From the NCBI RefSeq assembly GCF_056746865.1, contig NZ_CM163382.1: a stretch of DNA of 64,000 bases, one strand, 5' to 3'. The notes beneath the pieces were generated by a model. That model saw only the letters and a list, made by a program, of their open reading frames with translations, made no database searches and had not been told where the DNA came from. Positions 44,285 to 44,490 of this stretch are shown in pieces (within the stretch, counting starts at the first letter, position 1; each line of letters opens with the position of its first letter). The position numbers were made by a program, and so were the translations under genes.

Positions 44285-44490
44285 ATGCCGGATGCGGCGT
44301 GAACGCCTTATCCGGCCTACGGCTCGGTTTGTAGGCCTGATAAGACGCGCCAGCGTCGCATCAGGCTCCGGGTGCCGGATGCGGCGTAAACGCCTTATCC
44401 GGCCTACGGCTCGGATTTGTAGGCCTGATAAGACGCGCCAGCGTCGCATCAGGCACAGGATGCGGCGTAAAATGCCTTATCCGGCATTAA
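44285..44490. repeat. Cluster of ~3 REP/BIME units in the nrdA-nrdB intercistronic region
   Basis: Repeated GCCGGATGCGGCGTAAACGCCTTATCCGGCCTACG and TGTAGGCCTGATAAGACGCGCCAGCGTCGCATCAGGC units. Confidence 0.85.

Follow-up and report, generated by a model that had tools for sequence, protein, structure and literature searches.

In the present study, we analyzed a 64,000-nucleotide stretch of DNA (hereafter, the window) and found that the gap between nrdA and nrdB in the Escherichia coli nrdA-nrdB-yfaE operon was filled by a tandem REP array, which we assign with near certainty to the BIME-2 class. Our overall reading, which we hold to be very probably correct, is that this BIME-2 is a dispensable, modulating passenger at a position where a hairpin is tolerated or favoured, and not a dedicated regulator of the operon. 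Work on REPs and BIMEs in E. coli goes back about 40 years, and the nrdA-nrdB cluster itself is already known as a catalogued BIME-2, as a gyrase target and as a case cited in work on REP translational control. The source chromosome was that of E. coli, and the 501 bp around the cluster showed 100% identity to strain 118UI and 98.6% identity to K-12.

The nrdA gene, which encodes the 761-aa alpha subunit of class Ia ribonucleotide reductase, was located at 41992-44277 (+) from its ORF and the RefSeq annotation of 118UI and K-12, and it ended in a TGA stop codon at 44275-44277 (+). The nrdB gene for the 376-aa beta subunit was located at 44511-45641 (+), with its ATG start at 44511, from its ORF and the K-12 annotation, and was followed by yfaE at 45641-45895 (+). 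The nrdA-nrdB gap (44278-44510, +) measured 233 bp, in line with the roughly 230 bp estimated by an earlier reading of the sequence alone. Within this gap, the spacer between the nrdA stop and the first REP unit was located at 44278-44285 (+). At the other end, AGGA at 44501-44504 (+), a candidate Shine-Dalgarno sequence for nrdB that we assigned from the letters themselves, was situated 13 nt past the last REP and 6 nt upstream of the nrdB ATG, and was unpaired in the predicted fold of the gap.

REP units were called with nhmmer, using a small profile made from the five units of the gap; a strict regular expression gave just six units in the window. The cluster was found at 44286-44487 (202 bp), which agreed with the sequence-only reading of REPs filling the gap at 44285-44490. 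That reading had counted about three REP units, a number that had to be raised to five, arranged in the order Y, Z2, Y, Z2 and truncated Y on strands +, -, +, - and +. Direct-repeat analysis described the same cluster as 2.5 copies of an 87/88-bp Y+Z2 unit. Unit 1 (44286-44320, +; nhmmer E = 6e-10) was of the Y type with the sequence TGCCGGATGCGGCGTGAACGCCTTATCCGGCCTAC, and unit 2 (44331-44366, -; nhmmer E = 2e-9) was an inverted Z2 type whose + strand reads GTAGGCCTGATAAGACGCGCCAGCGTCGCATCAGGC. Unit 3 (44373-44407, +; Y type) and unit 4 (44419-44455, -; inverted Z2 type) were both supported by nhmmer and by the repeat family; unit 3 was 96% identical to unit 1 at a distance of 87 nt, and unit 4 was 94% identical to unit 2 at a distance of 88 nt. 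Unit 5 (44456-44487, +; Y type; nhmmer and repeats) was truncated in its 5' arm, where CAGGATG replaces GCCGGATG, and it lacked the CTAC foot and ended in GGCATTAA. Units 1 and 2 were arranged tail to tail across a 10-nt linker (44321-44330) and units 2 and 3 head to head across a 6-nt linker (44367-44372), while the linker between units 3 and 4 was 11 nt (44408-44418) and that between units 4 and 5 was 0 nt. CTAC feet were observed at 44317-44320 and 44404-44407, and GTAG feet at 44331-44334 and 44419-44422. The units were 32-37 nt long and each formed a hairpin with an internal mismatch, consistent with the definition of REPs as imperfect palindromes of 30-40 nt. Copies were also dispersed around the genome: when the 501-bp query was searched against E. 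coli genomes, 5425 of 5426 had matches, at a median of 36 places per genome among the matches listed.

Ton-Hoang et al. (2012) define a BIME-2 by y and z2 REPs in alternation, by short linkers and tandem repetition, and by copy numbers that vary among strains. All of these features were observed at nrdA-nrdB, where Y and Z2 units alternated with linkers of at most 11 nt and a period of 87/88 nt, and where copy number varied among strains. The alternative class, BIME-1, which carries a long L linker with an IHF site, was rejected since all of the linkers were 11 nt or less and were judged too short for an IHF site. In its alternating Y/Z2 units, GTAG/CTAC feet, short linkers and extragenic position, the array resembled other E. 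coli BIME-2 elements; it differed from the usual form in its truncated last unit without a CTAC foot, and we found no other substantive difference. In their supplementary table, Sutormin et al. (2019) enter nrdA>-nrdB> as a 202-bp BIME-2 with gyrase cuts, an extent that matches 44286-44487 exactly, and a few point changes in loops and stems distinguished the present array from this catalogued K-12 element. According to the same table, DNA gyrase cleaves at this BIME-2 in vivo, with two cuts credited to Espeli and Boccard (1997), and the study reported an over-representation of such cleavage sites in BIME-2 elements, mainly in y-type REPs (Sutormin et al. 2019). In the RefSeq record of K-12, no REP feature is listed in the gap, where only yoaM is annotated, and a full-text literature search for nrdA/nrdB together with REP returned no paper; the link is known through citing papers and the supplementary table. 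Collectively, the repeat anatomy and the hairpins indicated that the sequence-only reading had correctly recognized a REP/BIME cluster inside the nrdAB operon junction.

The REPs also leave a trace in the ORF list, where, as had been pointed out from the sequence, the reading frame of nrdB continues upstream through them as a false N-terminal extension. The ORF concerned (44280-45641, TTG start, 453 aa) was in frame with nrdB and placed 77 REP-encoded codons before the nrdB ATG. If it were a genuine extension of NrdB, the open frame between 44280 and the ATG would be explained; however, the 77 added codons are REP-encoded, their number varies by strain and their sequence is wholly different in the E. 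coli allele that has no REPs. Moreover, the ATG is the RefSeq start of nrdB in all genomes examined, and the candidate Shine-Dalgarno sequence lies 6 nt upstream of it. We therefore rejected an extension from TTG 44280 and give it practically no chance of being real. For annotation, nrdB should not be given a start at 44280 because of this open frame, and ORFs derived from REPs are best ignored on either strand.

With the same nhmmer profile, 14 REP units were found in five intergenic sites of the window, rather than in the four sites recognized from the sequence alone. Three of the recognized sites, at 2215-2340, 14066-14265 and 45900-45945, were recovered with three, four and one units, respectively, and the site that had been missed was a single REP in the ubiG-yfaL gap (37531-37560, -; nhmmer; -22.6 kcal/mol). 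The eco-mqo site contained three units at 2217-2334 (nhmmer). The eco-mqo gap (2194-2340) was 147 bp with three REPs here and is 714 bp in K-12, for which Sutormin et al. (2019) tabulate a BIME-2 of 654 bp that carries many gyrase cuts; this is another large difference in BIME copy number between strains. In the rcsB-rcsC gap, four units at 14067-14263 (nhmmer and naRNA4 hits) formed two Z2/Y pairs of 83 bp each, so that the earlier description of two tandem copies of about 85 bp stood for the number and size of the pairs; their start-to-start period, however, was 114 bp. The single REP in the yfaE-inaA gap (45908-45943, +; nhmmer; -20.2 kcal/mol) began 12 nt after the yfaE stop, within 15 nt of it; it occupied the 3' end of the nrdAB-yfaE operon and faced the end of inaA. 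Around the ubiG-yfaL gap, the alignment to K-12 breaks, with approximately 65 bp between the aligned blocks here against approximately 132 bp in K-12, and the yfaL ORF was 13 codons shorter at its end (1237 aa here and 1250 aa in K-12). The MicF small RNA gene was found in its expected place for the region, at 10316-10409 (+), divergent from ompC and upstream of rcsD.

The sequence-only reading depended on stable hairpins in the RNA of the gap, and these were present in the predicted fold. The whole gap folded with an MFE of -122.5 kcal/mol (z = -6.48), and none of 200 shuffles was as stable. Folded singly, units 1 to 5 gave RNA hairpins of -21.3, -22.8, -22.3, -21.9 and -11.8 kcal/mol, respectively, and each of units 1-4 was more stable than all 200 of its shuffles. 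In the MFE fold, the entire cluster is closed by pairing between the intact 3' arm of unit 5 and the 5' arm of unit 1. The first stem-paired residue was G44287, which left 9 nt (44278-44286) between the nrdA stop codon and the stem. In a consensus scan, no promoter-like site was detected on the + strand of the gap, so an internal nrdB promoter was discarded as a candidate; likewise, no hairpin followed by a T-run was detected on the + strand between 43900 and 44900, and none of the five hairpins had a T-run directly 3' of it, so an intrinsic terminator in the gap was rejected on the T-run criterion. Because the gap has neither a promoter-like nor a terminator-like site on the + strand, the REP cluster is probably transcribed within the nrdAB mRNA. 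In addition, since no nrdB promoter-like site was found there, the expression of nrdB would depend on read-through from nrdA.

Some BIMEs are said to reduce transcriptional read-through, and the array might accordingly be a partial attenuator that lowers transcription from nrdA into nrdB. In its favour, nrdB would rely on read-through across a gap that has no promoter-like site of its own, and several relatives, such as Kosakonia, Buttiauxella and Zobellella, have a T-run 3' of the hairpin that follows nrdA, in the manner of a terminator. However, all five hairpins here lack a T-run, and nrdB is essential as well as reliant on read-through; we consider attenuation quite unlikely.

On the opposite strand, the Rfam model naRNA4 (RF02564) matched at full length (model positions 1-77) at 44334-44404 (-), scoring 82.3 bits where the gathering threshold is 59.5. 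naRNA4 is a Y-linker-Z2 unit according to its authors (Qian et al.), and we take the match to point to a Y-Z2 unit and not to a functional HU-binding RNA. The Y-linker-Z2 unit is shared with REP325, the array of six units between yjdM and yjdN that has been tied experimentally to HU and nucleoid condensation; in contrast to REP325, the present array has 2.5 units, is located inside an essential operon and has its naRNA4 match antisense to that operon. The same strand carries yoaM (K-12 b4779; 44477-44512, -), a small antisense ORF of 11 aa known from the K-12 annotation and from Weaver et al. (bioRxiv 10.1101/511675). It overlaps the nrdB start codon, and its final codons and stop are inside REP unit 5; residue 2 is Ser in K-12 and Asn in the window, and in the REP-free allele the C-terminal coding sequence is replaced. 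The cluster could be imagined to act on the minus strand, where it would make up the 3' part of an antisense yoaM transcript and give rise to naRNA4-like RNAs able to bind HU. This would fit with the Rfam match on that strand, with a yoaM transcription start placed inside nrdB and running toward the REPs, and with the finding of Qian et al. that condensation with HU depends on the structure of the RNA and not on its sequence. However, the naRNA4 model describes a mere Y-Z2 pair and also matches both strands at 14070-14146, the antisense RNA is itself a candidate, and the existence of REP-free alleles argues against any need for it. We regard a minus-strand role as very improbable.

A comparison of REP copy number among strains, which had been proposed together with the sequence-only reading, revealed 5-, 4- and 3-REP alleles as well as REP-free ones. 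Among the 5425 E. coli genomes with a match, a REP-bearing gap covering at least 80% of the 501-bp query was found in 3707, and a REP-free gap of 88 bp was found in 1685 (31%); about 33 genomes fell into neither class. The gap of K-12 and of the present window was 233 bp with five REPs. Two further five-REP alleles measured 241 bp, with an 8-bp duplication in a linker, and 226 bp, which is the O157:H7 allele; a 145-bp allele with three REPs had one 88-bp unit less, and a 189-bp allele had four divergent REPs like those of Citrobacter. The 88-bp allele contained no REP and had an unrelated GC-rich palindrome instead. Among 39 chromosomal hits sampled at even spacing, the rough allele shares were 38% for the five-REP 233/241-bp class, 5% for the O157 type, 21% for the three-REP allele, 5% for the 189-bp allele and 31% for the REP-free allele. 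The variation indicates that REP number is unstable at nrdA-nrdB, as expected of a BIME-2. Because 31% of the genomes are REP-free and copy number varies in the rest, the REPs appear to be dispensable for the essential nrdAB operon.

The palindrome of the REP-free allele reads CCGTCCCCTCTCCCC-TTGC-GGGAGAGGGGACGG; the 88-bp gap folded with an MFE of -39 kcal/mol, and its strong stem was located 24 nt past the nrdA stop. Palindromes of this type, CCCTCTCCC...GGGAGAGGG, were often flanked by CCCCTCACCC/GGGTGAGGGG and were also found in several other enterobacterial genera. In E. coli, 1-4 weak matches per genome were detected in 2400 of 5426 genomes, and no copy was found in the 64-kb window. The palindrome may resemble Box C of the enterobacteria, a family to which we do not assign it; searching the literature on boxC yielded no family name for it. 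In the 189-bp allele, represented by E. coli strain 04-00955, two of the four divergent REPs were short, with the sequence GTAGGCCGGATAAGCGAAGCGCATCCGGCA, and these were identical to a REP in the nrdA-nrdB gap of Citrobacter youngae. The identity hints that the 189-bp allele may be an old allele or an import by recombination.

We also examined the position after nrdA in other species by a scan of representative genomes, which gave 80 loci, with a gap that could be delimited in 76. In 66 of these 76 gammaproteobacterial species, a single stable hairpin (<= -10 kcal/mol) was found early in the gap, and in 60 of the 76 the hairpin began at most 15 nt after the nrdA stop. When gaps of testable length were compared with mononucleotide shuffles, 54 of 69 folded at z < -2. 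The sequence of the hairpin differed between lineages: E. albertii had a five-REP array as in E. coli; Citrobacter, Klebsiella oxytoca and Pseudescherichia had REP pairs of their own; Pluralibacter, Pseudocitrobacter, Phytobacter, Cedecea and one Enterobacter had CTCTCCC-type palindromes like the one in the REP-free E. coli allele; and Kosakonia, Buttiauxella and Zobellella had simple terminator-like stems with a T-run. Siccibacter had a simple stem with a REP pair behind it, and Photorhabdus had a 12-bp gap with no hairpin. These results suggested that, across 76 species that are interrelated, a hairpin just 3' of nrdA may be old, with REPs merely its current occupant in most E. coli.

The turnover of elements raises the question of whether the array does anything at all. 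In the most reductive account, the BIME would be a neutral or selfish passenger in a gap that tolerates insertions, its effects on nrdAB would be incidental, and the hairpins of other species would be leftovers or weak terminators. REP presence, absence and copy number are all variable within E. coli, a strain-variable copy number is known for BIME-2, and in other genera the gap is taken up by elements unrelated to these (REPs of their own, palindromes of the CTCTCCC type or T-run hairpins), as this account expects. However, a hairpin has been kept within 15 nt of the stop in most of the species scanned despite the turnover of its sequence, most of the gaps of testable length folded at z < -2, and gyrase cleaves at the nrdA-nrdB site in vivo. 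Selection for a hairpin could explain its presence this close to the stop, which weakens the passenger part of our own reading as well. A purely neutral passenger is a tentative possibility that we hold to be somewhat less probable than not, and we retain the dispensable but modulating BIME-2 as the preferred reading.

For REPs downstream of genes, a 2025 survey reported that they reduce the translation of the upstream gene only if they are less than 16 nt from its stop codon. At the present locus, 44277 is the last position of the nrdA stop and 44287 the first of the REP stem, and the 9 nt between them fall within the 15-nt limit. The spacing is thus like that of the REPs at 15 nt or less that lower upstream translation, and it differs from that of the REP-free E. 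coli allele, whose strong hairpin begins 24 nt after the nrdA stop. A paper that refers to Liang, Rudd and Deutscher (2015) counts the nrdAB REP transcript among the instances in which translational control by REPs has been reported. The class that follows the 15-nt rule is characterised by stalled ribosomes, cleaved mRNA and trans-translation at the stop; these are its features, and by that citation they may apply to nrdAB as well.

In the mechanism that we propose for the modulating passenger, the first hairpin, 9 nt past the nrdA stop, would impede the terminating ribosome and lower the output of the upstream gene, while the hairpins would block 3'-to-5' exonucleases. Both RNA effects would act on nrdA; initiation on nrdB would stay free, with its predicted ribosome-binding site unpaired. 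The array itself would grow and shrink by recombination between its tandem copies, possibly aided by a REP-associated transposase.

The sequence-only reading had put the emphasis elsewhere, on stabilisation of the upstream mRNA and tuning of the relative expression of the subunits, and both effects are plausible here. REPs reportedly stabilise upstream mRNA, which is regarded as their classical and established role. The intercistronic stabilisers of malE-malF and hisJ-hisQ resemble nrdA-nrdB in having stable REP hairpins between operon genes, 3' of the first gene; in contrast to them, the nrdA-nrdB site is polymorphic and in some strains entirely devoid of REPs. If the hairpins served mainly as a barrier to mRNA decay, they would stabilise the nrdA segment and set the relative expression of the subunits. 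The four sense-RNA hairpins of -21 to -23 kcal/mol, a gap that has no terminator-like site and thus lets the RNA run on into nrdB, and the hairpin after nrdA in most related species are all compatible with such a barrier. However, at 9 nt from a stop the reported effect is a lower, not a higher, output of the upstream gene. Furthermore, since 31% of E. coli genomes are REP-free and the others have 3 to 5 units, a fixed stoichiometric role of the REPs is unlikely. We therefore consider a decay barrier as the main function to be rather unlikely, and we favour the dispensable BIME-2 whose hairpins may modulate nrdA.

The one angle in these data that is mildly new, and it is a speculative one, is the dimorphism within E. 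coli, in which a BIME-2 begins 9 nt past the nrdA stop in approximately 69% of genomes and an unrelated hairpin begins at 24 nt in approximately 31%. It is conceivable, if unlikely, that the site just after the nrdA stop is a conserved hairpin slot and that the two E. coli classes produce different amounts of NrdA and have different NrdA:NrdB ratios. If this were true, such a difference between the two classes is what the 15-nt rule would predict. The natural alleles with five REPs, with three REPs, or with no REP and a hairpin farther from the stop could be used to test whether REPs tune translation and mRNA stability in a native essential operon.
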